Origin: a virus
Lineage: Duplodnaviria > Caudoviricetes
Strand: one strand, 5' to 3'
DNA: 64,000 nucleotides
IMG/VR virus record: IMGVR_UViG_3300028832_000145
Location: 1,305-65,304 of that record
Of the stretch, positions 5,634 to 51,637 are shown in pieces (the first letter of the stretch is position 1; each line of letters begins with the position of its first letter). Under the pieces are notes generated by a model that did no database searches, was not told the origin of the DNA, and saw nothing but the letters and a program-made list of their open reading frames with translations. A program made the translations under genes and the position numbers.

Positions 5634-6175
5634 TGCTTCTTCCCTTTATTCTTTGCTCCCTTTCCATCGGTCTTTGCCGCCGTGCCCTCGCTATCCAGCG
5701 AGGTCTTCTCCTTCTCTATCTCCTTGCGTATCGTCTCGTAAAGCAGCTCTATCTTGTGCGCATCCTTTATCCCGAGGCTCTTTGCCATTGCCTTGGCTAC
5801 GTTCAGCGGGTCTGCCTTGCCATCCTTGATGCGCTTGCGGTTCTCCCACACGCTCACCGCCTCGATAGCAATCTCGCCCACGGCCACAAGGACACACACG
5901 ATGGGAATCTTGCACCACAGACTAAGGCAGGCATCTATGAACACGGCGAGGAAATACAGCATCAGATACGTCACGTCCTTGTTGGCTGTCTCCCGTAGTC
6001 CGTAACTCGTTGTCTTGAATTGTCCTGCCGCCTTACTCGCCTTGATGCCAAAATATAAGTCCATCAGGCTTGATGCCAACACCATTACCGCCATCATGCC
6101 GATAGCCAGTCCCCAGAGCTTGGCGGCCTCAACGTCGCCTGAGATAATGTGCCCAATAAACAATAATTGTTTCAT
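5630..6175 (-). CDS. Holin
   Basis: Two to three TM helices, DLYFGIKA and E..SVWEN patterns, charged tail, overlaps endolysin start. Confidence 0.7.
   Translation of the reverse strand: MKQLLFIGHIISGDVEAAKLWGLAIGMMAVMVLASSLMDLYFGIKASKAAGQFKTTSYGLRETANKDVTYLMLYFLAVFIDACLSLWCKIPIVCVLVAVGEIAIEAVSVWENRKRIKDGKADPLNVAKAMAKSLGIKDAHKIELLYETIRKEIEKEKTSLDSEGTAAKTDGKGAKNKGKKQ
5671..5707 (+). repeat. Dispersed coding hairpin repeat, copy 2 (holin)
   Basis: TTTGCCGCCGTGC-CCTCGCT-ATCC-AGCGAGG-TC; encodes KTSLDSEGTAAK on the minus strand. Confidence 0.9.
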
Positions 6176-13461: not shown

Positions 13462-15285
13462 CTACTCTACGCTACCAGTGTAGACCTTCCACTCGTCGTC
13501 GGTCTCACTCCACTGATAGATGTGTTCGCCGTCCAGCACGTCGCCGGTGTACTCGGCCCAGGCGTTGTCGGTATAGATGTAGTACTTACCATTCTCGTAG
13601 GTGACATCGTCGGGGGCTGTGCCTACGGTGATGTCAACGGTAGGAGCGATAATCATATCCTCTGTCGGGTCGGCGGGCAGGGTGCTCACCTTCTCCACGG
13701 GACCGTCCTCACTCAGCAGACCGTCAAACGAGATAAGCATGCCGTCGGTCGGGTTGGCGGGCAGGGATGTAATCAGCGTAACGGGGTTAGCGGCATCGCT
13801 CATGTTCTTGTCTACAATCTCGTCGTTCGGGCCAAACAGCAGACTGGTGTGTCCGCCAAGCTTCAGGGCACCTGCCTCGATGTAGATGTAACGGCTGGCC
13901 TCGCGGGCATCGTTACCGGCCTTCTTCAGGTCAATCTCATACTCCTTGGAGTTACCGCTGATGTTGTGGTAGTACTTGGCCTTCTGGATGGGGATAACAA
14001 CCATGAAGTTCTTGTAGCCGAGGTCATCAAGGGCAGGAGCATGTACGATGTGCCATGTGCCGAAGTTGCTCACCAGGTCGCGTACTACGATGCCGTAGTC
14101 GGTCTTGTGGTGCTTGTACTCTACGGTGTGGTGCAGAATCTCGGGCATGTTCTCCAGCTCGGCAATCTTGTTCATGCCGCAATAGACGTAAGCCTCTTTC
14201 GACTTGCCAAGGCCAGTGCCCATAACCTTACCGATGGCCGAAATATGCTCCCACTTGAACTTACCATCCATACCAATCGTGTTGGTAAGCTGACGAAGAA
14301 CGCCGTTCATGGTGTAGACATATTCCTCGTTGCCGTCCTTGGTGCGCATGATGAACTTACCTTGTGCCATGATCCACAGGCTGTACTCCTGCTTCTTCTT
14401 GAAGTTACGCAGTGCCTGTGCCTTGATGTCGGCAAGTCCCCAGCTGGTCTTCTTGATAACCTCACGCTCCTTGTCGGTAATGAGGATATTAAACTCCATT
14501 TTCTGGAGATAGACGGTTGTCGGGCGGGGCTGGCTGTTGTCAGGCTGCACAATCATCTGGCTCTCGGAAGCGGCTACAGACGTGATGACCATTTCCGTTC
14601 CGGCAGGAATGGCAGGTGCGGTGTAGTCACGCAGGTACTCACTCTTCTGAGTGTCAACCTTGGTAATACCGTTGATAGGACGGCAGGTAATCTTCTCTTC
14701 GTCGTTAGAGACAACAAACAGCACCAGCGGACCACCATCCTTCTTCGACTGACTGCCGTTCTCGTAGCCGTTCACACCCTTCACTACGATGGTGCTCGAT
14801 ACACCCAGCAGACTCAGGTTACCGCTACAGTTCGATTCCGTCAGGATAATCTTCTCACCGGCGGCAATGTCATCAATGACCGTCAGCTTCAGGTCTTCCT
14901 CACCGATGCGGAAGTCGGTAATCTCGTAGTCGTGACCGCCTACGGTGCGCTGCATGGCAATCGTCTGCGCGTGGTTCAGAAGAACATAGTCATCAGCCTC
15001 AAACTCCACAATGTCGGGGTCATACTGGTCTTCCAGCAGCTTGGCACGGCGAAGCTGGGTAGCAGATGCCTGAGTGCCCGGCAGAGACTGACCGGCACCC
15101 TTGCCGTCAGGACTCTTCAGGTCGTTGGTCTCAGGATTCACTGGGTCAGGATTGGAAGGGTCGGGGTCACCTACGGCACCCTCGGCAAGGCATACGCCTG
15201 CGCCACCCGTCAATACTGCCATCACTACGAACATCAGACTGACTACCAGCTGATGTTTCTTAATAAAAGCAACTAACTTTTTCAT
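13462..15285 (-). CDS. Major capsid protein with hydrophobic N-terminal leader and duplicated C-terminal decoration domain
   Basis: 607 aa after scaffold; core motifs (QPRPTTVYLQK, GVLRQL, SNFGTWHIVH..LD) resemble SU10/N4-type HK97-fold capsids. Confidence 0.75.
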   Translation of the reverse strand: MKKLVAFIKKHQLVVSLMFVVMAVLTGGAGVCLAEGAVGDPDPSNPDPVNPETNDLKSPDGKGAGQSLPGTQASATQLRRAKLLEDQYDPDIVEFEADDYVLLNHAQTIAMQRTVGGHDYEITDFRIGEEDLKLTVIDDIAAGEKIILTESNCSGNLSLLGVSSTIVVKGVNGYENGSQSKKDGGPLVLFVVSNDEEKITCRPINGITKVDTQKSEYLRDYTAPAIPAGTEMVITSVAASESQMIVQPDNSQPRPTTVYLQKMEFNILITDKEREVIKKTSWGLADIKAQALRNFKKKQEYSLWIMAQGKFIMRTKDGNEEYVYTMNGVLRQLTNTIGMDGKFKWEHISAIGKVMGTGLGKSKEAYVYCGMNKIAELENMPEILHHTVEYKHHKTDYGIVVRDLVSNFGTWHIVHAPALDDLGYKNFMVVIPIQKAKYYHNISGNSKEYEIDLKKAGNDAREASRYIYIEAGALKLGGHTSLLFGPNDEIVDKNMSDAANPVTLITSLPANPTDGMLISFDGLLSEDGPVEKVSTLPADPTEDMIIAPTVDITVGTAPDDVTYENGKYYIYTDNAWAEYTGDVLDGEHIYQWSETDDEWKVYTGSVE

Positions 15286-15303
15286 ACGTTTTTTAATTGT
15301 TGG

Positions 15304-15468
15304 TTAATATCGTGTTAATTTTCCTCTCCGTATCTGTGTGGCTGATGCCTGCGTACCTGTCAAGTTCTGACCAGCATAGCCGCCAGGACTTCTTAGGTCG
15401 CTCTTTGTCGGGTCTACGGGGTCGCGCTTTCTTGGCGACGGGTCCATCACTGCAGCACTATAGTCCAT
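15304..15468 (-). CDS. Unannotated 54-aa paralogue of the capsid N-terminal arm
   Basis: MDYSAAVMDPSPRKRDPVDPTKSDLRSPGGYAGQNLTGTQASATQIRRGKLTRY; 25 of 37 aligned columns identical to capsid DPVNPETNDLKSPDGKGAGQSLPGTQASATQLRRAKL, with many synonymous codon differences. Confidence 0.75.
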   Translation of the reverse strand: MDYSAAVMDPSPRKRDPVDPTKSDLRSPGGYAGQNLTGTQASATQIRRGKLTRY

Positions 15469-15480
15469 TATGACAATTAT

Positions 15481-16347
15481 TTAGTCCATAAGTTCCTTAC
15501 CCCAGTCGGCAAAGCCGCCTTCCTTCTTCGGCTTCTTCTCGCCGCGTCCGGCTCCACCTGTGCCCTTTGAGGGAGGCAGACCGGTTCCAAAGTCCTTCAG
15601 GCCGTTTTCCACCTTCTCGTTAAGAGCTGTTGCGCGTGCCTTTTCGGTGGCAGCGGCAATGTCGTTGTCGTAGTTCTCGGCTTTCAAGATGGCCTCCCAA
15701 ACTTCCTTGCTGACGATACCGCGAGAGGCTGCGCCAAAGATGCCGTCGCTGATAGGCTCACCGTCCTCTCCAGTCTCGCCAAACATCTTCTTGACAAGGG
15801 CAACAACATCTTCGTTGCTCAGTCCTTTCTCGTCCTGTACCTGTTTCAGCGCATTGAAGGACTCCTGCATGTTAGCACCTATCTCTTTCTTGGTGTCCTC
15901 GTCGGCCTTAGTGGCGGCGGCTGTCGCCTCCTGATTCTTGATAAGGGCCTCGCCCATCTTCTTACCAAACTCCGGATCGTTGGCCAGCTCACGAATATCC
16001 ATGTCGGGGCCGATGTTTTCTGCCAGATAGGTAAACGGGTTCTCGCCTTCCTTTGCTGCCAGCACCAGTCCGGCAAGCAACGGCGCTTTGTCGAAGGCCT
16101 CACCCAGCAGCCGATTGTCTTCACGATACTTCTCCAGCTCGTCAAGATTCGCGTTTGCCTGTGTGTAAAAGGCGTCCTCGTCATCGAGGTTCATGTCCGG
16201 GTGCGCCTTGCTGTAGCGGTCGCGGTATCGGTCACGCGCCGTCGGCTCGGTTGACGCCGTTCCTGCAGCTTCTCCTGCGGGTACAGCCGGTGTAGTGGCC
16301 TCGCCGTTCGGCGGGGTCTCTGCGTTAACTTTCTTCTTCTCTGCCAT
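15481..16347 (-). CDS. Capsid scaffolding protein
   Basis: Acidic helical 288 aa directly upstream of capsid; start moved to MAEKKK at 16347. Confidence 0.6.
   Translation of the reverse strand: MAEKKKVNAETPPNGEATTPAVPAGEAAGTASTEPTARDRYRDRYSKAHPDMNLDDEDAFYTQANANLDELEKYREDNRLLGEAFDKAPLLAGLVLAAKEGENPFTYLAENIGPDMDIRELANDPEFGKKMGEALIKNQEATAAATKADEDTKKEIGANMQESFNALKQVQDEKGLSNEDVVALVKKMFGETGEDGEPISDGIFGAASRGIVSKEVWEAILKAENYDNDIAAATEKARATALNEKVENGLKDFGTGLPPSKGTGGAGRGEKKPKKEGGFADWGKELMD
16291..16320 (+). repeat. Dispersed coding hairpin repeat, copy 4 (scaffold)
   Basis: TGTAGTGG-CCTCGCC-GTTC-GGCGGGG-TCTC; compensatory C-G pair in the stem. Confidence 0.55.
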
Positions 16348-16394
16348 AACTGTTATGTTTATGTTTTGTTTGCCGTCGTTGGCTGGATTCGCCA

Positions 16395-16440
16395 CAAAAT
16401 TAAAGCTGCAAGGGGCTTCATTTTTCACAATATTATCAAA
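16395..16440 (-). promoter_or_regulatory. Late promoter for scaffold-capsid-fibre-lysis operon
   Basis: On minus strand TTTGATAATATTGTGAAAA, 19 nt, then TAATTTTG (Bacteroidota -7 box TAnnTTTG). Confidence 0.65.
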
Positions 16441-16471
16441 CAGCCGAGGAAACAACCGCCAAAATGCCTCT

Positions 16472-16517
16472 TTTGATAATTTTGTGAAAAACATCGCCCT
16501 TTTCAGACCTATTTTTG
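16472..16517 (+). promoter_or_regulatory. Late promoter for portal-adaptor operon
   Basis: TTTGATAATTTTGTGAAAA, 19 nt, then TATTTTTG. Confidence 0.65.
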
Positions 16518-16539
16518 CAACCAAAAGAATCATCACAGC

Positions 16540-18570
16540 ATGACAAAACAGATAAAACCACTACTGACGCTCGACGATGTGAGACCGCTGCCCAGTGGCA
16601 GTCGCCTTGACACTGTCGCCCAGCGACGTAAGCGCTATACACAGCCCGACGAATACGACAAAGACCTGCTCGGATATTGCGCACGCTCATGGATGAATAA
16701 GGATAGCTTTCGTCAGGAGCGTGCCCGCGTACTTCGTTACCTGTTCGGCAACCAGTGGGGCGACATTATCAATGTGCATGGTCTCGGCAACATCACCGAG
16801 GAAGAGCTTATCAAGCTTCAGGGCAACGTGCCGCTGAAGAATAACGTCATGATTTCCCTCTGGTCTACTGTCTATGGCATCCACGCGAAACAGGAGACGG
16901 AGCCGGTATGCTACGCGCGTCATCAGGATGCTAAGGAGCTGTCGGATAATATGTCGGCGGCTTTGCAGACCAACTGGCAGAATACTTACATGTCGGAACT
17001 GCTCGACACGGTCTTTGCCGAATACATTCTTTCCGGAGCTGCCTTTTCCTACGAGACTTTTGAAGAGCGCAACGGACTGCACGATTCCTATACCGACTAC
17101 TTCAACCCATATTTTATGTTCTGGGAGGGTGGCAGCGACCCGGCACACCGCGACATTCACATGATAGGATGCCTCCGCGAATATACGCGCGAAGAGCTTT
17201 ATTTCTGCTTTGCCAAGCCGGAGTACAACCTTACCATCGACAAGCTCAATGAGATATTCCATATTGGCGACACATTACCAGCAGCTCCCACACATCAGCA
17301 GAACGAGGTAAACGAGCTTAACAACGTTTCTTTCTATCGGCCGTCAAATCCTAACTGCTGTCGCGTTATCGAGGTTTGGCGTGAAGAGGTCAAGCCGCGC
17401 TATCAGTGCTACGACCTGCTGGCAACAAGTCAGGTTGACAAGTATTTCCGCGTTGAGAAAAAAGACCTCAAAGCCATCCGAGACATCAACCTCCAGCGCA
17501 AGGCGCTCTATGATGAACAGGGTGTGCCCAACGAGAAGCGGGCCTATATCACCGCAAAGGAGATTGTCGACAAGTACTGGCAGTATTACTTCCTGGCACC
17601 TGACGGCCGCATACTCTGCGAGGGCGAATGTCCTTACGACTACAAGGACCACCCCTTTACGGTTTCTCTCTACCCATATATAAACGGTGAGATTCATCCG
17701 TTCATGAGTTTCTTCATCGACCAGCAGCGTTACATCAACCGCACTGTCATGATGGGCGATATGGCATTAAAGAGTTCGGCCAAGGGCATGACGTTCTTAC
17801 CACTCAGCATGAAGCCCGAGGGTATGACCGTTGAAGAGTATGCCAATCAGAAGACCAAGTTTGATTCTGTCTTTGTCTATGACGATACGAAACCGGCAGC
17901 ACAGCGGTCCGACCGAAAGCCCGAGTTCTATACCCACTCGGCTATGAACATCGGCCATACGGAAATGCTGCAGATTCAGATGAACATGATCCATGAGGTA
18001 TCAGGTGTTCACGATGCCGTACAGGGTAAGACACCCACCTCCGGCACCAGCGCAGCACGCTACGCTATGGAGTCGCAGAACGCCACGACCACCATCTATC
18101 CCCTCATTAAGAAGTTCAACGGATTTGAGGAACGTGTTGCCATGAAGAAGTGCATCACCATGCAGCAGTTCTATGAGGAAGGTCGCGACATCACGCCGCG
18201 AAAGTCCGACGAACAAATCTTCTACCGCGCCAACGCTGCCCGCGATGTCAAGTTCAATGTCTCTATCAAGAACTCGGCCAGCTCGGCTGCTTTCCTACAG
18301 CTTGGTAACGAAATGCTTGACAAACTGCTGCAAGGTGGCCTTATCGACGCACGCACATACCTCAAACACTACGATGCGCCGGGTGTCGACAAGATTCTTC
18401 AAGACCTCGACAGCTACCAGCAGCAGTTGCAGGAGGGACAGCAGCCCGCAGCACCCGTACAGATACCTGGAGCCAACCAGCAGCAGGCAGCAACAGCCAC
18501 ACAGCTGCTTCACGGCCCCGGACAGCTCTTCACACGTCAGAACGGCCAGCTTATGCCAGCCGAACAGTAA
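16540..18570 (+). CDS. Portal protein
   Basis: 676 aa; RYLFGNQW and NNVMISLWSTVYG patterns, Gln-rich C-terminal extension, divergent from scaffold. Confidence 0.8.
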   Translation: MTKQIKPLLTLDDVRPLPSGSRLDTVAQRRKRYTQPDEYDKDLLGYCARSWMNKDSFRQERARVLRYLFGNQWGDIINVHGLGNITEEELIKLQGNVPLKNNVMISLWSTVYGIHAKQETEPVCYARHQDAKELSDNMSAALQTNWQNTYMSELLDTVFAEYILSGAAFSYETFEERNGLHDSYTDYFNPYFMFWEGGSDPAHRDIHMIGCLREYTREELYFCFAKPEYNLTIDKLNEIFHIGDTLPAAPTHQQNEVNELNNVSFYRPSNPNCCRVIEVWREEVKPRYQCYDLLATSQVDKYFRVEKKDLKAIRDINLQRKALYDEQGVPNEKRAYITAKEIVDKYWQYYFLAPDGRILCEGECPYDYKDHPFTVSLYPYINGEIHPFMSFFIDQQRYINRTVMMGDMALKSSAKGMTFLPLSMKPEGMTVEEYANQKTKFDSVFVYDDTKPAAQRSDRKPEFYTHSAMNIGHTEMLQIQMNMIHEVSGVHDAVQGKTPTSGTSAARYAMESQNATTTIYPLIKKFNGFEERVAMKKCITMQQFYEEGRDITPRKSDEQIFYRANAARDVKFNVSIKNSASSAAFLQLGNEMLDKLLQGGLIDARTYLKHYDAPGVDKILQDLDSYQQQLQEGQQPAAPVQIPGANQQQAATATQLLHGPGQLFTRQNGQLMPAEQ

Positions 18571-18586
18571 TATATAAATAAGGTAT

Positions 18587-21500
18587 ATGGATATTACACT
18601 ACAGTTCAGCACTCTCGCCGAAGCAGTCAACCGTTCTCTGGCTATCACCGCCAAGCGACTGCGTAACGCCGATGGAAAGTCGGTGTATGATGACATCACA
18701 CTCAGCACAGCAGAACAGCCGTTGCTCTACGACTACTTCCGAGAGGCTATCGTCCTGCTGAATACCACGACGCAGCACTTCATCACCGATACCCTGTTCA
18801 GTGACGAGATGGAAACGCCGTCCGTCACGCTGACTTTTCCAAACAATCATAACAACGCTATGAATACAACTATCACCGTTGCCCTCACATCGTTCTGTGT
18901 GGCCTACGCCGTCTATGCTTGGCTGTCCGTCGTGAATCCCGGCATCGTCAAGCGCTACGAAGAGGCCATGCAGGAAAAGCTCGATGCTCTTGTGCAGCTC
19001 ATCTTTCACAAAGCACCCCCGCAGTCTTCATATACCTATGATTTACCACCTGTTGTCAACACCCCCGGCGACATCACTCTCTCTTCCGGAGGTCAGTATC
19101 TTCTCGGCTACACTCTTGGCTCTGATGGCGTTGACGATCTGGTGGCAACATCATCCAGCGAGGCTATTGTGGTTACAAAGGTACCTAACAACCGCCTCTT
19201 CTCTATCTACAACGGCAATGTAGGCGAGAACAACATCACCGGCACCGTCACCATCAAGCGCAGCGACAACAGCGTCTTGGCCACAATCAACGTCACTGCA
19301 AAGGCTCCTGCCGCCGATGCCGCCATCGTCACCCACCCCGCCCTGATAGGCTACAGCGCCTTGTCCGATACTATCACCTTGCGTAAGGGTGCAAATATCA
19401 ACATATATTTTACAGGTAATATCACGAGTATAACGGCAAACAACGATAATGTTTCCTATACGCTTACCGATTCTCCGACAAAGGTAATCAACATCCAGGG
19501 CGACGAGGTAGGTACTTCCGTTGTTACTATCTACGACAATGCAGGCTGGCGTTACACACTCTACGTTACTGTTGAGGCCGTAGTGGGAGTATCTCCATAC
19601 TTTACATCACCACAGCACGTCGGAATCGACGTTGGAGAAACAACATATATCACCTATAATCTCGGTGACGAAACCCTTGACGATTTCTATGTAGCTGAAA
19701 GTCGTGGCAATATCACCATCACTAAGGATGCAGCGAATAGAAGATTTGTCGTCACCGGCATATCAGCTGGTGGTGGTTATGTGCGCGTGCAGTCCTCGCG
19801 TCACCCAGAGAGCAACACCGTATTTATGTTTGTTGTCAACTCCACGGATGAGGCACAACTGCCCGATGTGTACGGCTATACAAGCGGAGACACCATCAAC
19901 ATGGTTGCTGGAGCAAGCCCCGTCCGTATCTATTTCTTCCCCGGCTCAGAAGGAACCTTCGATATATCACCATCAGTAGTAGGAAAGGTGTCTCTCTCCG
20001 AATACGACGGCATGGGTTATGTGGACGTGACACCGTTGGAGGCTGGCAACATTACGCTGACCTTTGCCAATCAGGGAATGATAGTCGACGAACAAAACGA
20101 CACAAGTTGGTCGTTCACTCTCACCATTGCCGTTGCAGCACGCCCGGCAGTAGTCACCAATCCTATTGTATATTTCCCAGATAGAGTAGAGGGTTTCTAT
20201 AAGGACGATGTCAGACGATACGACTACGTTCTCGGCAATGACAACACCGATAACCTTACAGTGACTTCATCCAATCAAAATGTCGCTACTGTTGATATTG
20301 ACAGGACGAACAAGAAAATTGTCATTACCGCACAGAGCGCATCAGATGGTACGGCAACAATCACCGTTTCCAAACCTAACACAGGCTGGAGCCAGTCTGT
20401 AGTCGTGTATGTCGATGAGTCTTATGAGGTCATAGCACCTAAGATTAACTACTATCAGATACATGGCTCGTCTGCCGTCAACATATCAAGCGGTCAGACA
20501 TCTGCATCCGTTTCTGTAGAAGGAAAGCGAATCTATGTCAACGCCTCAATGGGACGTAAGAAAAACGGAAGCGTTATTTATACGCGCATCGTCTCTTCTG
20601 ACCAGACCGTCATAGCTGTTACTGACCAAGTTTATACTGGAACCATCAGCTTGATTCCTGTGTCAGAAGGCTCTGCAACCGTCAGTTTCTATAACTCCGA
20701 CACCAACGCCTTGATATTTGCCCTTGGCGTGACCGTGACCGAGGCAACAGAGGATGCTGGAGTGCCGGTTATAAATGGCCTCGCTATTGTTGGTGGGACG
20801 TTCAGCACCAACCCAAGCGAAAATGAGTCGTATATTGCAATACCATCCGACAGCACAAGCTACAATGTATATTTGCCGCTTGATAAATATCTGCTGCTGG
20901 ATATTGACGACACAGCAGCAGAAGTAAGTATTACTTCCGACAACGATTCCATAGCAGAGTACGAACTTATGGGTGGCGGTAGAGGTGTTGCTGGCAATGA
21001 TATGATTGTACCTCACGCCGTTGGCTCTACGGTTATCAGATTCACATCACCCGGTTTGTCGTGGTCGTTCAATCTTAATGTTGCTGTTGTTGGAACATCT
21101 TCAGAGGGTGGTAGCAATACACCTGCCTCCCTTCCCGAGATTACTTCCAGCAGCCATGATGGTACATACTATCTTAAAGGAACTGTTGACGGCGTAACCA
21201 ATCCCGTCTTTATGCATGACTCCCTCGGTACCGGTGTTGTTGTCATACACAAAACTAATAATAACGAAATCTACTGTTACAACGAATCAGCAGGTACCGT
21301 TAGCATCGACACCGTTCACACCCTAAGCGACGTAAGCACTCTTGGGCAGGCCATCGTTAATGCACTGACTACATACGGAGTTGCTGCAGCGACTTATACT
21401 ACAACAACATCACAGCCCGATTCACCTGTTGGCTACGCACTATATTCTCCTGCAAGCTCCGGCGGCTCTTCATCAGGTACAGAAGACTGGAGTGGCTTGA

Positions 21501-21859
21501 CGCTCTGCGAAGACTCTTCTGATTTCGTTGATGGTGAGGTATATGTATTGAAGGGTTATATACAAGATTCGCAATATACCAACCTGCGCAATTACATATT
21601 CCGATACAACAATGGCAAGGTTGCCGCAGTATCAAGCGGGAACGGAAATAGGCTTTATTATTTCGATGCGTCAAACCAGCAAATAAAACAAGAATACTTT
21701 AGTAATGTCTATGACATGGAAGATGCTGCGTGGTACATTGTTACAGCTGTAGCCAACGCATTGAACACAATAGGTATGACTGTAACCGCAGATGAGGTAA
21801 ATGGCACTCCAATACGAACACAAACAGTAACCTCAGTAACTAAATATGTTGAACAATAA
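18587..21859 (+). CDS. Adaptor-ring-like protein with long Ig-like extension
   Basis: N-terminal about 140 aa resembles the next three genes; then repeated beta-rich Ig-like modules and two similar C-terminal domains. Confidence 0.6.
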   Translation: MDITLQFSTLAEAVNRSLAITAKRLRNADGKSVYDDITLSTAEQPLLYDYFREAIVLLNTTTQHFITDTLFSDEMETPSVTLTFPNNHNNAMNTTITVALTSFCVAYAVYAWLSVVNPGIVKRYEEAMQEKLDALVQLIFHKAPPQSSYTYDLPPVVNTPGDITLSSGGQYLLGYTLGSDGVDDLVATSSSEAIVVTKVPNNRLFSIYNGNVGENNITGTVTIKRSDNSVLATINVTAKAPAADAAIVTHPALIGYSALSDTITLRKGANINIYFTGNITSITANNDNVSYTLTDSPTKVINIQGDEVGTSVVTIYDNAGWRYTLYVTVEAVVGVSPYFTSPQHVGIDVGETTYITYNLGDETLDDFYVAESRGNITITKDAANRRFVVTGISAGGGYVRVQSSRHPESNTVFMFVVNSTDEAQLPDVYGYTSGDTINMVAGASPVRIYFFPGSEGTFDISPSVVGKVSLSEYDGMGYVDVTPLEAGNITLTFANQGMIVDEQNDTSWSFTLTIAVAARPAVVTNPIVYFPDRVEGFYKDDVRRYDYVLGNDNTDNLTVTSSNQNVATVDIDRTNKKIVITAQSASDGTATITVSKPNTGWSQSVVVYVDESYEVIAPKINYYQIHGSSAVNISSGQTSASVSVEGKRIYVNASMGRKKNGSVIYTRIVSSDQTVIAVTDQVYTGTISLIPVSEGSATVSFYNSDTNALIFALGVTVTEATEDAGVPVINGLAIVGGTFSTNPSENESYIAIPSDSTSYNVYLPLDKYLLLDIDDTAAEVSITSDNDSIAEYELMGGGRGVAGNDMIVPHAVGSTVIRFTSPGLSWSFNLNVAVVGTSSEGGSNTPASLPEITSSSHDGTYYLKGTVDGVTNPVFMHDSLGTGVVVIHKTNNNEIYCYNESAGTVSIDTVHTLSDVSTLGQAIVNALTTYGVAAATYTTTTSQPDSPVGYALYSPASSGGSSSGTEDWSGLTLCEDSSDFVDGEVYVLKGYIQDSQYTNLRNYIFRYNNGKVAAVSSGNGNRLYYFDASNQQIKQEYFSNVYDMEDAAWYIVTAVANALNTIGMTVTADEVNGTPIRTQTVTSVTKYVEQ

Positions 21860-21871
21860 ACCCGATAAATT

Positions 21872-22471
21872 ATGGCAAATCTACTCACACTTACACTCAA
21901 CCGCGTCAACATCATCGACGCTGTGAAGGCCGACACTTTCATCACTGGTCAGATTGACAAGTCGGCAGATGCAGTCAAGAACGCTGCCCTTGCCTTCCAC
22001 GAGTCCGCTGGCGATGACAACTATCATGAGGTGAAGCTGCTGCGTACACTTCGCGGGGCTATCGCCAAGTTCGAGGCTAACATGGTGGAGTTCGTCGACA
22101 CGTCCGATGCCAATGCGGCCATCACCAACACCCTCAACCCTAACAACGACACCTTTGCCATCACCCTGAACGTGGCTTCGCGTTTCAACAGGGCTTTTGC
22201 AGGCACCCTTGCCTCACTCGCCGAGACATTCCTTATCAATATGATGCTCTACGACTGGTGGCAGTCTGCCAAACCCTCTCTCGCCAAGGACTACTACGCT
22301 GCTGCACAGGACTCCCTTGTTTACGTCCGGCAGTGTCTCGCCAAATCTGCGCCAGCAGTGAGCCAGCAGTCTTACGCAGGCCCCACCGGCGAAGTCGTAG
22401 AACCGCAAGCCCCTGCTGGCTCCGGCACTACTACCGAGACAACCGAGACAACCGAGACAACCAATCCCTAA
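21872..22471 (+). CDS. Neck/adaptor ring protein paralogue
   Basis: FLINMMLYDWWQ helix, same pattern as neighbours; TET x3 tail. Confidence 0.55.
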   Translation: MANLLTLTLNRVNIIDAVKADTFITGQIDKSADAVKNAALAFHESAGDDNYHEVKLLRTLRGAIAKFEANMVEFVDTSDANAAITNTLNPNNDTFAITLNVASRFNRAFAGTLASLAETFLINMMLYDWWQSAKPSLAKDYYAAAQDSLVYVRQCLAKSAPAVSQQSYAGPTGEVVEPQAPAGSGTTTETTETTETTNP

Positions 22472-22489
22472 CGGCTAACAAGTAAAGAC

Positions 22490-23332
22490 ATGAATATCCG
22501 ACTTACCCTTTACAAGTCCCTCATCATCGAGGCCGTCAAAAACGAGACCTTCCACCGGGGACAGTTCGACAAGGCCGCAGACCAGAAGGCCGCTGTAGCA
22601 GCCTTTCATGAACAGGCTGGCGACGAGACCTACCATGAGCGCATCCTGCAGCGATCGCTCACCACTAACTTGTCTTCCTTGAAGACGTTACTCTCCGACT
22701 ACCTCACGGCATCGGGAGAGCTTGCCGGCCATAACATCACCGAGGAAACCAATAACGACCAGATTATTCTTATCCTCAATGTATCGGAGCGTTTCAACAC
22801 CTCCTATACGGACGCGCTGGCAAAACTTGCAGCTGAGTATATCACCAACGCTATGCTCATGGACTGGTGGCGTCCTGTCAACGGAAAGCAGTCGGAACTC
22901 TATGCCACATTCCTGCAGAAGAACACCGCCGACATTCAGCGCTGTTTCTCCAAGACTGCCCCGAAGGTGCCCGTCTATAAATACCCGATAGCCATCGACA
23001 TCAGATACCCGCTTATCGAGACCAGCAACGGCATACCAGGCTACATCACACCATCCAACAGTCAGCTGGCACAGGAGGTTCTCTTTGGCAATCCTTGGCG
23101 CATCAGCGAGGGCGAGGACTCGGAAATCTCCTACACCCTATCGGGCGAGAACGGAGAAGACCCCGTTGACGACATCATGGTGCGCGTCGACAATGGCCAC
23201 TGCTGCCATGCACGCCTCAACGCACAGGGACGTTACTACTTGCACGCCGTCCAAAAGGGCTACGCCATCGTCACCCTGTTCTCACGCCACGACAGCCGTG
23301 TCTTTGCTACCTTTGCCGTCCGTGTAGTATAA
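22490..23332 (+). CDS. Neck/adaptor ring protein paralogue with C-terminal Ig-like domain
   Basis: YITNAMLMDWWR helix; N-terminus parallels the 21872 gene. Confidence 0.55.
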   Translation: MNIRLTLYKSLIIEAVKNETFHRGQFDKAADQKAAVAAFHEQAGDETYHERILQRSLTTNLSSLKTLLSDYLTASGELAGHNITEETNNDQIILILNVSERFNTSYTDALAKLAAEYITNAMLMDWWRPVNGKQSELYATFLQKNTADIQRCFSKTAPKVPVYKYPIAIDIRYPLIETSNGIPGYITPSNSQLAQEVLFGNPWRISEGEDSEISYTLSGENGEDPVDDIMVRVDNGHCCHARLNAQGRYYLHAVQKGYAIVTLFSRHDSRVFATFAVRVV

Positions 23333-23338
23333 AAAGTA

Positions 23339-23836
23339 TTGCTTATGATTGCAGAGATTATCATCTTCAAACAGGAGATTACACACGACATCGAGGCCGA
23401 TGTCCGGCAGCTGGAGCGTATGCGCAAGCTGACAGACACGCCCATACTGACTAACGACGATGCCGACAGGTATAGCCTCAACACGCAGATAGACCTCGCG
23501 CTGTCTATTGCCATATCACGTCTGCAGGCGTATGTCATCAGTACACCGTGCCACTCCCACCAAGTCGCTCACGACCACACCACCGACTGGGACGAGAAGA
23601 AAATCACCCTCGACATGCCCTTTAGCTGGCCACAGCACCTGCTGGAACCTCTTAAAAACGCCGTCCACCGTTTCATCGTCAAGACGGCACTACATAACTT
23701 CCTGCGCGTAGCGTTGCCACAAGACCCTTACACAACGCTCTCGCTGGATGAAGCCAATGAGGCCAGCAACCGCATCAATTCACTTATCAGCGACAGACTA
23801 GGGCCTATAAAGATTCACCCAACACCATTCGGATAG
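23339..23836 (+). CDS. Neck/adaptor ring protein paralogue
   Basis: AVHRFIVKTALHNFL helix pattern. Confidence 0.5.
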   Translation: MLMIAEIIIFKQEITHDIEADVRQLERMRKLTDTPILTNDDADRYSLNTQIDLALSIAISRLQAYVISTPCHSHQVAHDHTTDWDEKKITLDMPFSWPQHLLEPLKNAVHRFIVKTALHNFLRVALPQDPYTTLSLDEANEASNRINSLISDRLGPIKIHPTPFG

Positions 23837-23842
23837 TTAATC

Positions 23843-24136
23843 ATGGCAGGAGGAAAACGTGGACGCCCACCCGGCGCACAGAATAAGGTAGGTCAGGAAC
23901 AGAAGGAATTTATCAAGGGCCTGCTCGGCGAGACTCAGGAAGAGTTTCGTAAATCTTTCGTGTTCTATGCTAAGAACGCAGAAAAAAACGCGGAAGACCG
24001 CGCCCGCTTTGTCAACATCTCTATTGAGCTGTCAAAGATGATTGTCCCCAAGCCTGTAGAGATTGATGCCAGCATCAACGCCAGCGGATTTGAGGAACTG
24101 ATGAAGCTATGCTCCAAATATGATGATGAAGAGTAG
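23843..24136 (+). CDS. Putative terminase small subunit
   Basis: MAGGKRGRPPGAQNK N-terminus typical of TerS; adjacent to TerL. Confidence 0.55.
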   Translation: MAGGKRGRPPGAQNKVGQEQKEFIKGLLGETQEEFRKSFVFYAKNAEKNAEDRARFVNISIELSKMIVPKPVEIDASINASGFEELMKLCSKYDDEE

Positions 24137-24137
24137 A

Positions 24138-26444
24138 CTAAAGGTCTGCTTCTGTGCCGGCTCTTGCTGCCGACAATCCTCCAGTTGATTCTTTTATCCA
24201 CTGAGGTAGTGGCATCTTCAGGCTTACATACAAGCCGATACCCGTTGACATCACAATATCGTCATGGTTGTTCTTGCCTTCTGAGTTACCCATTGTGCCG
24301 TCTTCCTTACGCTCGTATATCATCAGCTCGTCAAACGCCTGTTTGTCAGGTTCCACATAAAGGGCATCCTCCACATACGCCTTGTAGCAGTCTATCACCA
24401 GCTCCTTTGTCACGGTGTTGGTGTGGAAACCGTAGATGTTCGTTACCTTCTGCGTCACCTTGTCAACCTCGGTGGCACGGATATACAGGTTAGGATAGTA
24501 GTCTGCTATCTCGTCGATGATGGTTCCGAAGTGGTCACCCTCTTCATCCAGTCGCTGCTTGCGGGTGTCGGCAGTGTTCTTCTCTATTACCAGCTTCGCG
24601 TCGCCGTATAAGTGCGCAAGCTGCGCTGCTTTCCATGCCAGCAGGTCAAAGCGCATGTGACCGCGCCAACGTGCCACCACCTGCGGCTTTCCATACATAC
24701 CGGGCATCATGCCGAAGCGGTCTATCACCGTCATAACGGTAAAGTCCGATGTGCGGCTGCTACCGCCTATGTCGACGCTCACCACATAGCGGTCCGACAC
24801 TTTCAGGCCGTCCGGCATACGCCATATTCTCAGTACCTGTCCGTCATCCACCTTGTCAACGAGGCGGGCACGCTTAATGGCATTGATGCCTTTGTCGTAG
24901 TCTGACACGATGTTACCCACAAATATAGGCTGCTTCTCCATCGACATGCGCATAGCATCAACACAGTATTTGTCAAAGATAAGGTTACCAGCGGCCATGA
25001 AGCACTCCACATCGTCGGCGGGGAACTCCGTAGCCATGTAGCTGTGTGTGCGGTACTCGTTACGTTTGTTCCTGTACCAGTTGATAGCTTCCATCGAGGC
25101 ACCTTTCTGCCACTGTTGCCAGAAGTATTTGCCACTCTCGCGGTAGCCCTTCGGATTGTTCGGGTTATCTTTGTTCTCTATCAGCCACTCGGCAAACTCC
25201 CTCTCCGCTGCACGATACGCCTTGATGGTCTCCTTTGCTTTCAGCATCTGTGCCTCACCCTTTGCCGCCGTGCCCTCGCTATTGAGCGAGGTCTTCTTAG
25301 TAGCCCTCAGCGCCGCTGCAAACGCTTTCCAGCCACCTTCCATCAGCTCGTCGCGGTATAACTCAATTTCATAGTACGCAACAAACAGCGGCTCCCATGC
25401 GCTCGGTATGTCGGGATTCTTCGCCTCTTGATACATATTGTAGAAGAAGTCGCCGACAGTCCTGCCCGACGATTCCATCACTATCATGGTGTCCGGGCGC
25501 TTACCTACCGTACCATTGATAGATGACAGCACACCCTCCGGCTTCTTCTGCTCCGTCTCTTTCCAGTACGCCACCTCTGACAGATGTGCCATCTTAAGGT
25601 TAGAGCTTCGGCTGGCATCGTAGTTCTCGTATGACACTACCGAGGTCACGTTACCTCTCACCTCTTCGCCTGCAGTGGTCTTCACCACAAAGTCGGTGGT
25701 GCTGCCCTTGAAAGGCGCACTCTTCAGACGGCGACCTTTCAGGCCGACACTCCAGCCGGGCTGATGATCCAGCGCAAGGTCGTACATCGCGCGGATACGG
25801 ATTGATGCTGCCGTCTGGTGGGCCATAATGGCCATGTTCCACCGCTGATGCTTGAAGTCCTGCATCCACTTACCATACAGCTGCGTCTCGGTGGAACCGC
25901 CGAACTGACGCGCCTTTGGCAAAACAATACGGATGGGCCTGCGTTCAAGCCTCATCTTCTCCTGTAGGGCAAGTATCTTGCGCTGGCCGTAGTTAAGGAC
26001 GAAAGGTATCAAGGTGCCCTCTTCCTTATCCACAATCTTGTATATCATGGCAAAGGCAAACGCAGGGTCTTCCTCTGCCCTCATCTTGAACAAGGCACAG
26101 ACAACGTCCTCAAAGGTCTCGTCGTTGAACTCCCAGCCCAGTTCGTCCTCAATGTATTTCCTGATACTGCCGCGTTTCAGTACCTTTTTCAGAAAGATGT
26201 TATGCTCTACGATGCGCTCCGGCATATACTGAACCCTGATGGGGCAGTCCGGAATCTTCACCTTCTTTCGGGGACCAGGGGCGCCGCGTCCGGTAATAGG
26301 GTTGAAGCCGTCAAACATTTCATGGTTGCGACGCTCGTTCTCTTTGACAAGCGCCTCTACCGTCGGCTCACCGTTCCACCATCCCGTCGCTGCTGCCTCG
26401 GTTTTCCCTGATGGCATATCAACCTTTCCACCGTCCATAGGCAA
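24138..26444 (-). CDS. terL: Terminase large subunit
   Basis: PKARQFGGST Walker A, AHLSEVAYW Walker B, MIVMESSG, nuclease motifs VSVDIGG..SDFTV and NHDDIVM. Confidence 0.9.
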   Translation of the reverse strand: MPMDGGKVDMPSGKTEAAATGWWNGEPTVEALVKENERRNHEMFDGFNPITGRGAPGPRKKVKIPDCPIRVQYMPERIVEHNIFLKKVLKRGSIRKYIEDELGWEFNDETFEDVVCALFKMRAEEDPAFAFAMIYKIVDKEEGTLIPFVLNYGQRKILALQEKMRLERRPIRIVLPKARQFGGSTETQLYGKWMQDFKHQRWNMAIMAHQTAASIRIRAMYDLALDHQPGWSVGLKGRRLKSAPFKGSTTDFVVKTTAGEEVRGNVTSVVSYENYDASRSSNLKMAHLSEVAYWKETEQKKPEGVLSSINGTVGKRPDTMIVMESSGRTVGDFFYNMYQEAKNPDIPSAWEPLFVAYYEIELYRDELMEGGWKAFAAALRATKKTSLNSEGTAAKGEAQMLKAKETIKAYRAAEREFAEWLIENKDNPNNPKGYRESGKYFWQQWQKGASMEAINWYRNKRNEYRTHSYMATEFPADDVECFMAAGNLIFDKYCVDAMRMSMEKQPIFVGNIVSDYDKGINAIKRARLVDKVDDGQVLRIWRMPDGLKVSDRYVVSVDIGGSSRTSDFTVMTVIDRFGMMPGMYGKPQVVARWRGHMRFDLLAWKAAQLAHLYGDAKLVIEKNTADTRKQRLDEEGDHFGTIIDEIADYYPNLYIRATEVDKVTQKVTNIYGFHTNTVTKELVIDCYKAYVEDALYVEPDKQAFDELMIYERKEDGTMGNSEGKNNHDDIVMSTGIGLYVSLKMPLPQWIKESTGGLSAARAGTEADL
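25261..25297 (+). repeat. Dispersed coding hairpin repeat, copy 5 (TerL)
   Basis: TTTGCCGCCGTGC-CCTCGCT-ATTG-AGCGAGG-TCTTC; encodes KTSLNSEGTAAK. Confidence 0.9.
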
Positions 26445-26925
26445 GCCCCATCAATACACAATAGGTGTGAATACTCCAGTTGATGTGTGGTATCAGCACG
26501 CCCACCAGCGCAAACGGCAGCATCCTCTTGCAGAACGTCCAGTATGTTGTTGTGCCACAACGACACAACGCCCCCCACTTTACACCGATGATAGCAAACA
26601 ACACGCCGCTGAATCCCATTGTCGCCGCTGCTGCCGCAGTCCCCTCGCTATTGAGCGAGGTAATCATCTCCCACGCCCCCGGCAGCACCGGTAGCCACGA
26701 CGCAAGAAACGCGATAGCTACCGATACCGCCAAGTACAGGCGCTTTGACATTAGCCAAAGCACAAACAGATTCCCGCACAAATGCCAGAAGTTTGCATGA
26801 CACACTATCCACAGCACATGCTCCATGATAGTTCCGTCTTCTCTATAACCCACCTTGACACCCAGCGCCCACACCAGCACCAGCACGATGGTGACAGCCG
26901 TCTTCTCTATCAGCAACCACTTCAT
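26419..26925 (-). CDS. Rhomboid-family intramembrane serine protease
   Basis: HANFWHLCGN (HxxxxHxxxN), GFSG catalytic Ser motif, distal His in WSIHTYC, several TM helices; start at 26925 overlaps the upstream stop. Confidence 0.8.
   Translation of the reverse strand: MKWLLIEKTAVTIVLVLVWALGVKVGYREDGTIMEHVLWIVCHANFWHLCGNLFVLWLMSKRLYLAVSVAIAFLASWLPVLPGAWEMITSLNSEGTAAAAATMGFSGVLFAIIGVKWGALCRCGTTTYWTFCKRMLPFALVGVLIPHINWSIHTYCVLMGLAYGRWKG
26630..26663 (+). repeat. Dispersed coding hairpin repeat, copy 6 (rhomboid)
   Basis: GCTGCCGCAGTCC-CCTCGCT-ATTG-AGCGAGG-TA; encodes TSLNSEGTAAAA just before GFSG. Confidence 0.9.
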
Positions 26926-27332
26926 ACACTCTTCCTTTTGCTTCTCTTCTGCCATATCTGACACATGCGCGTATGACCGATGTAGAACCTCGGTGCCGGT
27001 TGCAGGACGGCAAACTGCAGTACAAAGCTCAGGCTCTTACCGCAATAGGCGCTGTTCTGCCAAAGGCGTAGCACTGTCTCAAACAGGTCTTCATACATTT
27101 TCCTTTTCAAAGGCGAAAGCTTATCAATGGCGCTGCGGTCGCCTCTTGTCAGTGGCGATATATACTGATGCGCTCGTCTGGCATCTATATAGAACCTCGG
27201 TGCCGGATGCTCCACGACACGACGGAAAGCCTCGTCGTTACATCTGCACTCATAGCTGGCACTCACCTCCCGGAACACCTTCATGAGGTCTTCCTCCATC
27301 TCCTTTCTACAGTTAGTATGCTCCTTCATCAT
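26922..27332 (-). CDS. Hypothetical protein with internally repeated PAPRFYI motif, possible regulator
   Basis: HPAPRFYID and QPAPRFYIG; basic C-terminus; start moved to 27332. Confidence 0.6.
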   Translation of the reverse strand: MMKEHTNCRKEMEEDLMKVFREVSASYECRCNDEAFRRVVEHPAPRFYIDARRAHQYISPLTRGDRSAIDKLSPLKRKMYEDLFETVLRLWQNSAYCGKSLSFVLQFAVLQPAPRFYIGHTRMCQIWQKRSKRKSV

Positions 27333-27345
27333 TATCACCTTTTTA

Positions 27346-29961
27346 CTATTCACGCACATTCTCCGTCCTGCGATCCTGCGTCCTGATAATAGTACCGCTG
27401 AGACGCTCATAGGGCTTCATCTTGATAAACAGGGCTATGCGGTAGTACTTGGCGGCAGCACCAAAGCGGCTGCTGCTCTTATACCACTCCTGCAGGTCGT
27501 TGCTCACGAACACCTCTGTCTTCACCATGCTACCCTTACTCTTATCCCACATGCCCACGTTCACAAGCTCACGCAGGCTTGTCACCGTAACAGGCCCGCT
27601 GACCTTCATCGGACGTGTCAGCAGGAAAGCCTCACGCGCTACCTCACTCTCTTCCTCGCGCTTCTTGTCATAGAGGGAGTATATACAGTTATCATCGTCC
27701 TGCAGCAGATAGTCGGGATAGTTGTTCACAACGTTGGAGATATTACAAGAAAGCGTCATCTTACTAAAGCTGCCGTCACGAAGCGAGTACACCCAGCAAT
27801 ACATCTTGTCATCTTTCAGCAGCAGAAGCCGCGAGTCCATGTAGTCATACGCTATGCGAAGTTGCGGCGACTGTATGAACGTCTGGAAGCTATCGGCATC
27901 CCTGCCATACGACACGATGCCTGCCCACATCTGACTCTCCGCTTCGCTGACAAGCGTTCCGGGGTCAAGAGCGTCAAAGTCAGAGGTGTCAAACGCCTTG
28001 CCGTCCAGCTGTTCACTCACACAGCCCACACGGCCGTTCTCGTCAACAACCATCAGGCCCTTCTTCGATACGAAGAACACGGCGTTATCCGTCTGCACGA
28101 TGTTACCAGGATTCACGCACACCTCGCGCGACAGCGGATGACTGCTCTCATACAGGCCGGTATTATCTACCTGCATACCCCATATACCATCATCCGACAG
28201 CACCAGCAAGTCAGTACGTCCGAACTGGTCTTGCGACAGAGCCATCGTTACGCTCGTCATCGCCAGTATGCGCCCTGTGCCTACTTGATGGTAGCCCTCT
28301 GATAAGAATGTGAACGGATTGTTCACTTGCGACTGCACCAGCTGGCCGTCCAGCGTCTCGGGACTGTCACCATATTCCGTGTAGTCACTTCCCGTCAGTG
28401 CCGTGCCGCTATCGTTGTAATAGTTGTTAAATGTGGTTGACTCTGTGAGGAAATAGGCACCATTCAATCCGGGATGCTCTTTCAGTTCTGCATTTAGGGT
28501 AATAGTATTATTGCTGTATATCGTCACGCGGTCGGCACGGGAATCCGGGTAGTAGAAGAAATTACCCATCGCCTCCCTTGTCGTAAACACCTTCTTAACG
28601 ATACGGATGCCGGAATCGGTCTTAATGCGAACGTATGCCGTGTAGGTCTGCGCTGACTGACCGTCCAACGGCATGAAAGTTCTAAAGCCCGGGAAAAAGC
28701 CACGTTCCACTCCAGCTATATTCAGGCGGCGGTTGTACGGATACATCATGCTGCACTTCATCGGACAGCGAGAGTAGTAGTCGTCATGGTCAAGTCGTGG
28801 CTGGTTTGTCAGGTTCTCCAGTATGTGAGTGCCTATCTTGCCTGTCACGTTGACAGCACCAGTGCCTCGCAGACCAAGGGTACATAACTTATAGAATATG
28901 GAGGTTCTGGTTATTTCGTCATATATCTCTTTTCTCTTGCGGGTTTCAAGCAGCTGGGCGCTATAATGTGTGCTACTAGTACCGAATTGATACCAAGTGT
29001 TTGTCTCTTCCACCTTTCTCATCAGCCCGTTATCTTCCCTGATAGCATAACCGGCAGGAGTCTGACCTGTTAGTGACACATATTTCTTTTGGTCAACGAG
29101 GGTATCATATACGTCAATGCCGTCAGAAACGAATAACACCACGTCCTTGATAATGTCAGCAAACTCGGAAAAGTCTTTCGACTGCGTAATGCGAAGCTCA
29201 TAATAGAATGTCTCGCACTTAACGATGTCTGGAGAACTGGATTGTTCTCTCTTTTCTCTTGAATAATATGTGCTGCCGTCTATGGTCGGCCACATAAGCA
29301 GCGGATTGGTAATCTTTGTATAAGTGCCGTCGTACATTTCCAATGCGGCACGGACAAAGAACGGTTTGGCAAAGCCGCCCTTCTGTGCAATCAGCTTGAT
29401 GGTCTCTTGGTAGGAGCCTACCACCATATCATTGTAAGCTTCCTGTTTGTCCGCCTCGTGTTCAAAGGAGCTATACTTTATTATGCCGTTGCCGTTTCTT
29501 TCGACTTCGACAGTACCTTTATTTGGCTTCACCAGCTCTGCTTTGATTTCAAGGTCGGCAATCTCTCCCAAGTTCTTATACCTCGTTCCCGTCCACAGGA
29601 AATGAGTCAGCTGATTGTTGATAATCACCGACAGCGTCTTGCCGATGGCGGCTATCTGAGTCGACTTTATGTCTGCTGAGTGCTCACTGCTCTCTATAGG
29701 GTTTGGGGCATCGTTGAAGTAAAGCCAGCCGCTTCCCTCGTATATCTTATTCTCAACACCGTTTGGCAACCTATGCACATACACCAGCCTCCGGTCACTG
29801 CCCTCGTTGATGTCTGATACCTCCAGCATCGGCACCACCTTCAGCTCTTCGCCGTCAGTTGTCAGGTTGATGCACTCGGCCAGCTCGCCGTCCTCACAAA
29901 GAAAGTCACTTGGCCGACGGGTAATACCCGCCTTGTAGCTTATCCTCTTTTCCTGCTTCAT
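27346..29961 (-). CDS. Tail nozzle/stabilisation protein, podovirus type
   Basis: About 871 aa; GITRRPSD..DGELAECINL start and beta-propeller-like C-half. Confidence 0.65.
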   Translation of the reverse strand: MKQEKRISYKAGITRRPSDFLCEDGELAECINLTTDGEELKVVPMLEVSDINEGSDRRLVYVHRLPNGVENKIYEGSGWLYFNDAPNPIESSEHSADIKSTQIAAIGKTLSVIINNQLTHFLWTGTRYKNLGEIADLEIKAELVKPNKGTVEVERNGNGIIKYSSFEHEADKQEAYNDMVVGSYQETIKLIAQKGGFAKPFFVRAALEMYDGTYTKITNPLLMWPTIDGSTYYSREKREQSSSPDIVKCETFYYELRITQSKDFSEFADIIKDVVLFVSDGIDVYDTLVDQKKYVSLTGQTPAGYAIREDNGLMRKVEETNTWYQFGTSSTHYSAQLLETRKRKEIYDEITRTSIFYKLCTLGLRGTGAVNVTGKIGTHILENLTNQPRLDHDDYYSRCPMKCSMMYPYNRRLNIAGVERGFFPGFRTFMPLDGQSAQTYTAYVRIKTDSGIRIVKKVFTTREAMGNFFYYPDSRADRVTIYSNNTITLNAELKEHPGLNGAYFLTESTTFNNYYNDSGTALTGSDYTEYGDSPETLDGQLVQSQVNNPFTFLSEGYHQVGTGRILAMTSVTMALSQDQFGRTDLLVLSDDGIWGMQVDNTGLYESSHPLSREVCVNPGNIVQTDNAVFFVSKKGLMVVDENGRVGCVSEQLDGKAFDTSDFDALDPGTLVSEAESQMWAGIVSYGRDADSFQTFIQSPQLRIAYDYMDSRLLLLKDDKMYCWVYSLRDGSFSKMTLSCNISNVVNNYPDYLLQDDDNCIYSLYDKKREEESEVAREAFLLTRPMKVSGPVTVTSLRELVNVGMWDKSKGSMVKTEVFVSNDLQEWYKSSSRFGAAAKYYRIALFIKMKPYERLSGTIIRTQDRRTENVRE

Positions 29962-51544: not shown

Positions 51545-51637
51545 TTCTTTCTTCTGTGTGGCATAGGCAGAGCATACACCAGACGGCAAGGTTATAAATC
51601 TCCAGTTCATAAATTGTACAATTTTGATATATCGTGG

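Follow-up and report, generated by a model that had tools for sequence, protein, structure and literature searches.

A rhomboid protease gene that accompanies a signal-like capsid leader in Bacteroidota podophages, and its possible part in capsid maturation

The stretch of 64,000 nucleotides (nt) analyzed here (positions 1,305 to 65,304 of the IMG/VR record IMGVR_UViG_3300028832_000145; hereafter, the window) represents nearly the whole of a 65.3-kb virus record with a temperate podovirus-type genome. Its major capsid protein starts with a hydrophobic, signal-like leader, and a small rhomboid protease is encoded beside the large terminase subunit (TerL). Leader and rhomboid were found together in 35 related records; the coupling is one-sided, as every rhomboid-bearing phage examined also has the leader, whereas some leaders persist in phages that encode no rhomboid. 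Since the rhomboid vanishes whenever the leader does, it would most simply act on the leader, and we regard the chances that the phage enzyme processes the capsid leader as about even. The wider proposal, namely that this group of Bacteroidota podophages matures its HK97-fold capsid at the cytoplasmic membrane through a virus-encoded rhomboid replacing the prohead protease, is more tentative and falls slightly short of an even chance.

The capsid leader and the rhomboid

Translation of the capsid open reading frame (ORF) gives a protein beginning MKKLVAFIKKHQLVVSLMFVVMAVLTGGAGVCLAEG, which confirms the N-terminal leader quoted in the first-pass annotation of this DNA. The leader consists of a basic n-region with four Lys, about 22 uncharged residues containing the conserved motif AVLTGG, and the residues V-C-L-A, which are followed by Glu; position 15184 belongs to the final codon of its 34 residues. 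In the AlphaFold model residues 2-27 form a helix, the predicted local distance difference test score (pLDDT) is below 50 at residues 27-85 and the fold starts near residue 88. A net charge of about -6 is carried by the 30 residues that follow the leader, and the linker ends in a conserved arm motif, GAGQxLPGTQASATQ. The identity of the protein is clear from its body: Pfam SU10_MCP (PF17236) matches residues 211-461 (E 7e-10, 39.3 bits versus a cut-off of 24.1), and Foldseek matches the model to solved HK97-fold capsids, best to those of VP1, crAss001, P1 and SU10 and also to that of HK97, with E values down to 1e-18. Sequence searches of the PDB with the capsid and rhomboid profiles gave no match, and the relation came from the fold search.

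The leader is present in 118/118 full-length close homologues (44-97% identity). Among these the mean pairwise identity is 0.48 for the leader, 0.57 for its c-region, 0.56 for the capsid body and 0.66 for the arm motif, the best-conserved segment, and synonymous codon differences between relatives are numerous inside the leader. The n-region has a mean net charge of +2.85, the last small position (-1) is Ala in 104 of the 118 sequences, position -3 is Cys, Ala, Ser or Thr in most of them, and a Gly or small-residue pair is found in 110. The constant presence of the leader, its identity close to that of the body and the synonymous changes indicate that it is neither a chance feature nor the result of a mis-called start. 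A capsid start downstream of the leader is ruled out by the conservation of the leader at the protein level, together with the synonymous codon differences; the view that translation begins at the leader thus holds across the whole family. The sequence preceding the start codon is A-rich and devoid of a Shine-Dalgarno motif.

A search of 1.84 billion cluster representatives with the capsid profile identified 547 relatives (clusters at 50% identity). Most of the best 150 of these 547 representatives carry the leader, including capsid proteins of 450 residues matching at E 1e-22 to 1e-35, and in certain distant clades the leaders are longer and less signal-like. The leaderless minority among the best 150 begins just before the conserved arm motif, i.e., at the point where a small-x-Ala cleavage would leave the mature protein. 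The database protein P0252 also appeared to be leaderless, its start having been called at an internal Met (L161:1541-1700); this case was rejected, as the true start is 26 codons upstream, in a gap of 105 nt, and restores the leader MKKLSFVLWLVATIVSVVFGGSASMA. Gene callers can thus hide leaders and generate false leaderless calls in surveys.

When scored from its sequence features, the leader shows the basic n-region, the short h-region, the helix breaker and the small residues at -1 and -3 of a Sec signal cleaved by signal peptidase I (SPase I). A lipoprotein signal, processed by SPase II, was considered and discarded: there is no lipobox, the residue before Cys being Val or Ile, and the Cys itself is not conserved, since most homologues have Ser, Ala, Thr, Met or Leu instead.

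The rhomboid ORF (26419..26964, minus strand) is matched by Pfam Rhomboid with 27.5 bits, versus a cut-off of 22.6, and carries HANFWHLCGN, GFSG and a distal His. Alignment of 22 diverse homologues, which have a mean column identity of 37%, revealed the invariant residues His43, His48 and Asn52 in transmembrane helix 2 (TM2), Gly104, Ser106 and Gly107 in TM4, forming the GxSG motif, and His153 in TM6; the catalytic residues are kept also in the divergent rhomboids of G010, BS-TP4 and L018. The AlphaFold model has a pLDDT of 88.5, and its top 38 PDB matches in Foldseek are all GlpG or iRhom (probability 0.9-1.0, TM-score 0.45-0.59). The Lys plus Arg count is 12.7 on the N-terminus, loops 2 and 4 and the C-terminus, versus 0.6 on loops 1, 3 and 5, and this distribution predicts a GlpG-like topology, N-in/C-in, with the active site toward the periplasm. 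The Trp-Arg motif of loop 1 is absent, this loop having about 13 residues with a conserved Gly-Tyr instead; the motif is a difference from the GlpG type and not a catalytic requirement. The protein has no extra domain. The rhomboid has the fold and all catalytic residues and is under purifying selection, so that the earlier report of a rhomboid with intact Ser and His motifs beside the TerL start is well founded.

No PHROG family corresponds to the rhomboid. Rhombosortase TIGR03902 is the sole NCBIfam model matched by the phage proteins, and only weakly, in 8 of the 22 homologues (best E 1.3e-4), the window rhomboid not reaching E 0.01 with this model. Its ATG at 26925 overlaps the stop codon of the upstream 162-amino acid (aa) gene (ATGA), and, depending on which TerL start is used, its own stop either precedes that start by 1 nt or falls 20 to 26 nt into TerL; from the sequence around the start, the true TerL start is probably the ATG at 26438 or 26417.

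A hairpin element of about 35 bp is inserted in frame in the rhomboid gene. The insertion is recent, since the homologue P0125, which is 89% identical, is without it; disruption of the rhomboid by the element was excluded, because the insert is located in a variable loop and leaves the motifs intact. The element belongs to a family, CCTCGC..GCGAGG, found inside the coding regions of unrelated genes (Table 1), and the copy in TerL adds the same decapeptide, TSLNSEGTAA, as the rhomboid copy.

Distribution of the two traits among relatives

The records carrying both traits include the window and 15 other IMG/VR records (together G000-G002, G005-G015, G038 and G039), checked at full length, seven TerL-anchored loci, four rhomboid-anchored loci with distant capsid types (L064 and L066-L068), metagenome contigs from distant branches of the capsid tree (L159, L161, L163, L170 and L178) and the cultured Bacteroides phages BS-TP4, BF1-TP2 and BKO1-TP3. 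The rhomboid of G010 is so divergent that it was detected by the family-specific profile alone. Using Pfam and this same profile, no rhomboid was found in the 22 leaderless records of a large leaderless clade, 20 of which are at least 90% complete, and no leaderless phage with a rhomboid was seen among the records examined.

In the usual gene order TerL, the rhomboid and a small gene are on one strand, with the scaffold and capsid genes on the other; this arrangement, found in most lineages, places the rhomboid less than 1.5 kb away from the capsid gene. G001 and G002 have kept the rhomboid, although it has moved to another place in the genome. The phylogenetic tree built with FastTree using 132 capsid representatives showed the leaderless forms nested among the leader-bearing ones and required seven state changes; only two independent contrasts for leader loss could be scored on it. 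In L170, which has the leader, TerL, the rhomboid and a 141-aa gene are opposite to the scaffold and capsid genes, whereas in the leaderless sister, L160, TerL and a 134-aa gene face the scaffold and capsid genes, the rhomboid slot is empty and only 40 nt separate scaffold from capsid. L178, which has both leader and rhomboid, is the sister to the large leaderless clade. The short or odd contigs P0349, P0350, P0273 and P0357 gave no information on the pairing.

The co-distribution might also arise if the rhomboid acted on something else (for example, an ejection protein, an envelope protein of the host or a factor in lysis or exclusion) and were associated with the leader only by common descent in a single phage lineage. 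This explanation, which we consider unlikely, would benefit from the fact that the independent contrasts are just two, that the window rhomboid sits in an operon of internal and ejection proteins and that leader-bearing phages without the rhomboid do exist. However, it does not account for the lack of the rhomboid in all 22 leaderless relatives, for a syntenic slot that is empty exactly in the leaderless sister, or for the proximity of the rhomboid to the scaffold and capsid genes in most lineages. Moreover, among the predicted window products an N-terminal single-pass segment is found only in the capsid protein and in a spanin-like protein encoded beside the lysis genes. The membrane protein resembling T7 gp14 was also evaluated as an obligate partner of the rhomboid and was rejected, as it persists in 5/5 rhomboid-less genomes.

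When the window capsid and rhomboid were compared by tblastn with cultured phages, no match was obtained, while distant representatives matched the three Bacteroides phages. The records of these phages label the gene as rhomboid, except in BKO1-TP3, where the label is 'glycoside hydrolase'. In the corresponding GenBank records, PQ571277.1, PQ571263.1 and PQ571269.1 (L177, L188 and L189), TerL is named 'tail spike protein' and the capsid 'DUF2951/DUF5309 family protein'; these labels, as well as that of the BKO1-TP3 rhomboid, look like mis-annotations.

Proposed processing, alternatives and related systems

According to the proposal, the capsid protein would be made as a precursor, whose N-terminal leader brings it to, and presumably into, the cytoplasmic membrane. 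The rhomboid would be expressed from the same late morphogenesis gene block, translationally coupled to TerL, and could cut the leader within the membrane segment or at its outer end, near TGG and the small-x-Ala residues. After this cut, the N-terminus of the mature subunit would be formed by the acidic linker and the conserved arm motif, matching the start of the leaderless relatives. As a guess, the leader may insert as a loop, with the fast-folding capsid domain stalling translocation, and the cut might then let the disordered linker, whose approximately 50 residues are long enough to span the translocon, slip back. A prohead-protease family (S78/U35, S49/ClpP-like, S80 and S21 types were considered) was found by neither Pfam nor PHROGs in 28 ORFs, the scan being confined to ORFs other than that of 6601 aa; within this scope the earlier remark that no soluble prohead protease was recognized holds. 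The further idea of a coupling between processing and packaging finds nothing in its favor beyond the adjacency of the rhomboid gene to TerL.

Several observations weigh against this proposal. The genome of G040 (59 kb, with terminal repeats, 100% complete) encodes the leader, but neither a rhomboid nor any other multi-pass protein; in its capsid gene (35409..36827; L174-L176) an Asp-Glu is inserted after the hydrophobic core of the leader. Thus, a capsid protein with the leader can do without a phage rhomboid, and a host enzyme may suffice in G040. On the capsid tree this genome adjoins the clade in which the leader is wholly absent, a position suggesting that loss of the rhomboid preceded that of the leader. 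No rhomboid was found in the parts of the contigs seen for L162, which has a longer leader, and for L168. Because the contrasts are only two, the raw count of co-occurrences can be explained largely by shared ancestry. The expectation that the two traits co-occur is largely borne out, by the 35 records and by the leaderless clade, with G040 as an exception.

Topology raises a further difficulty. By the positive-inside rule the leader should be N-in/C-out. The end with TGG and small-x-Ala would then lie on the periplasmic side, as do SPase I and the predicted active site of the rhomboid. Well-studied rhomboid substrates are N-out, whereas the leader would have a type-II polarity; without a stall in translocation, the capsid domain would come to lie on the wrong side. 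A periplasmic cut alone would not account for a capsid domain in the cytoplasm. Of the original proposal of a membrane-anchored capsid protein freed by the rhomboid, the restriction of the rhomboid to leader-bearing phages is in favor, while the side predicted for the capsid domain is not.

Finally, the leader resembles a textbook Sec/SPase I signal, which makes the host leader peptidase an obvious alternative. The host SPase I, or a host rhomboid, might cut the leader, and the phage rhomboid would have a secondary function, for instance in ridding the membrane of tens of thousands of leftover leader peptides, in the manner of a signal-peptide peptidase. The sequence of the leader fits the SPase rule, with the frequent Ala at -1, a small residue or Cys at -3, the basic n-region and the acidic residues that follow, G040 carries the leader in the absence of a phage rhomboid, and the one-sided coupling is predicted equally well. 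In addition, SignalP-predicted signal peptides have been published for the capsid proteins of Porphyromonas gingivalis prophages, the 'Nixviridae'; their removal is assumed there to be the work of prohead proteases of the phage, and a rhomboid is not mentioned (Matrishin et al. 2023, PMC10367356). However, cleavage by SPase I follows translocation, so that the capsid protein would end up in the periplasm, and its export would be incompatible with DNA packaging in the cytoplasm; the leader sequence is also conserved far beyond what is usual for generic signal peptides, and in two lineages the loss of the rhomboid coincides with that of the leader. Overall, a primary cut by a host enzyme, with the phage rhomboid in a secondary role, seems improbable, to about the same degree as a different substrate for the phage rhomboid.

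Far less probable is that the leader remains uncleaved and is kept in the virion. Its role would then be to tether nucleating procapsids to the membrane or to form an inward helix bundle serving as a built-in scaffold. The absence of a recognizable prohead protease in the scanned ORFs and the longer, less signal-like leaders of some distant clades would be compatible with this reading. However, a separate gene occupies the scaffold position, and the start of the leaderless relatives falls immediately behind the predicted cut site. A capsid holding several hundred hydrophobic helices would also have no precedent, and the coupled rhomboid would be left unexplained.

The proposed processing of the leader by the phage rhomboid can be compared with a few known systems. 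The nearest analogue in terms of logic is the rhombosortase/GlyGly-CTERM system, in which a core-only rhomboid was paired with its targets from co-distribution and adjacency; the target signal comprises a Gly-Gly motif, one TM helix and a basic cluster, and enzyme and target are neighbors where the target is single (Haft & Varghese 2011, PMC3237569). The phage system shares the small core-only rhomboid and a candidate target signal with the same three parts. Unlike GlyGly-CTERM, however, the phage signal is N-terminal, with its parts in mirror order (basic cluster, helix, TGG) and an opposite chain polarity, and the target is an HK97 capsid protein instead of a secreted cell protein. When compared via NCBIfam, the phage rhomboids do not belong to the rhombosortases, since the TIGR03902 matches are weak and the candidate signal is not C-terminal.

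The best-studied bacterial rhomboid that trims an N-terminus is AarA of Providencia stuartii, which removes an N-terminal extension of TatA and thereby enables the assembly of its homo-oligomer (PMC3712462). A short N-terminal extension would be removed also in the phages, and the product likewise assembles into a homo-oligomer; however, TatA is N-out, loses only 8 residues, remains in the membrane and is part of a host system. With the gp4/gp5 delta domain of HK97 and gp21/gp23 of T4, the phages share an N-terminal segment presumably confined to the precursor and a protease gene located among the head genes. Prohead proteases, however, are soluble, co-assemble in the procapsid and remove a soluble, scaffolding-like domain, whereas here the leader is of membrane type and the candidate enzyme, as a protein embedded in the membrane, has no access to the procapsid interior. 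M13 likewise makes its major coat protein (pVIII) as a procoat with a cleavable signal peptide and keeps it in the inner membrane until assembly. This protein is, however, a helical coat of 50 residues, cut by the host leader peptidase and extruded through the membrane, and M13 has no HK97 fold, terminase or cytoplasmic DNA packaging.

Genome setting and significance

Prophages closely related to the window were found in Prevotella and Prevotellaceae assemblies. The features of the window are listed in Table 1.

Table 1. Location of the head-module genes and of other features in the window.
Feature	Coordinates	Strand	Basis or remarks
Holin and GH19 lysin	5100..6175		
Major capsid protein, 607 aa, HK97 fold and C-terminal beta-rich domain	13462..15285	-	Pfam SU10_MCP, AlphaFold/Foldseek
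Capsid linker, acidic, Pro-rich, disordered, codons 35-85	15031..15183	-	
Capsid leader, codons 1-34	15184..15285	-	
54-aa ORF	15304..15468	-	Between scaffold-position gene and capsid gene
351-aa gene directly upstream of capsid gene	15481..16536	-	phrog_22323, unknown function
Portal protein, P22-like	16540..18570	+	Pfam P22_portal, E 4.6e-27
SU10-like adaptor	Within window		
TerL	24138..26444	-	PHROG terminase match; 72% identical in relatives
Rhomboid, 168 aa, minimal six-helix intramembrane serine protease family	26419..26925	-	Pfam PF01694; MEROPS S54
In-frame hairpin element (about 35 bp) in rhomboid TM3-TM4 loop	26629..26666	-	Encodes TSLNSEGTAA
162-aa conserved gene upstream of rhomboid	26922..27410	-	phrog_27246
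6601-aa ORF, single	30162..49967	-	About 31% of genome; downstream of T7-gp14-like gene
T7-gp14-like internal protein	50840..51640		
Tyrosine integrase	51941..53356		
Hairpin copies (about 35 bp)	1567-1604, 5672-5709, 13017-13052, 16282-16317, 25260-25297, 26629-26666, 43878-43915		

The 351-aa gene is probably the scaffolding protein, as judged by its position only; the same site is occupied in all relatives by a gene of 250-280 aa. From position only, the 162-aa gene is possibly the small terminase subunit; a gene of 126-162 aa is found upstream of the rhomboid, or at the equivalent site, in all relatives, including the rhomboid-less ones.

The 54-aa ORF is a leaderless paralogue of capsid residues ~40-85, which correspond to the linker and the arm motif (GxAGQxLxGTQASATQ). 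Its place ahead of the capsid gene is conserved in 9 of 10 close relatives; the distant G010 lacks it. Read-through from this ORF into the capsid gene was considered and dismissed: the two are in frame in the window, but out of frame in 5 of the 9 relatives, and this inconsistency indicates that the ORF is a separate gene. The product might serve as a free 'arm' peptide, with a role as a decoy, as a cofactor of assembly or in the regulation of cleavage.

The 6601-aa ORF has counterparts of 3700-5400 aa in the relatives L162, L178 and G040. Two pairs of adjacent 42-nt direct repeats are also present, at 1977-2060 and 51823-51906; one pair is at the start of a helix-turn-helix type gene and the other between the integrase and the gp14-like gene, and a function as operators or in the attachment region is possible. 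An ORF on the plus strand (60496..61212) contains a 12-nt unit repeated in tandem about 15 times (60503-60778), which gives rise to a tetrapeptide repeat.

Tailed-phage capsid proteins are regarded as soluble and cytoplasmic; where they undergo maturation, soluble proteases within the procapsid are considered responsible. To our knowledge, rhomboids are otherwise almost unknown in phages, and few substrates of the bacterial-type enzymes have been identified. Full-text searches of the literature found no description of a phage rhomboid linked to capsids; in the publication on BS-TP4 the rhomboid goes unmentioned and proteomics is not included (PMC12694917).

The occurrence of the pair in the cultured phages BS-TP4, BF1-TP2 and BKO1-TP3 makes the idea directly testable, and the finding corrects the TerL and capsid annotations in their three GenBank records. 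The capsid family bearing the leader belongs to a large group of gut phages, as indicated by the 547 clusters that match the capsid profile. If true, the proposal would add a membrane step to the head assembly of tailed phages; it would also provide the first viral rhomboid with an assigned substrate, one of possibly reversed polarity, and a natural, genetically linked substrate for a rhomboid of the bacterial type.

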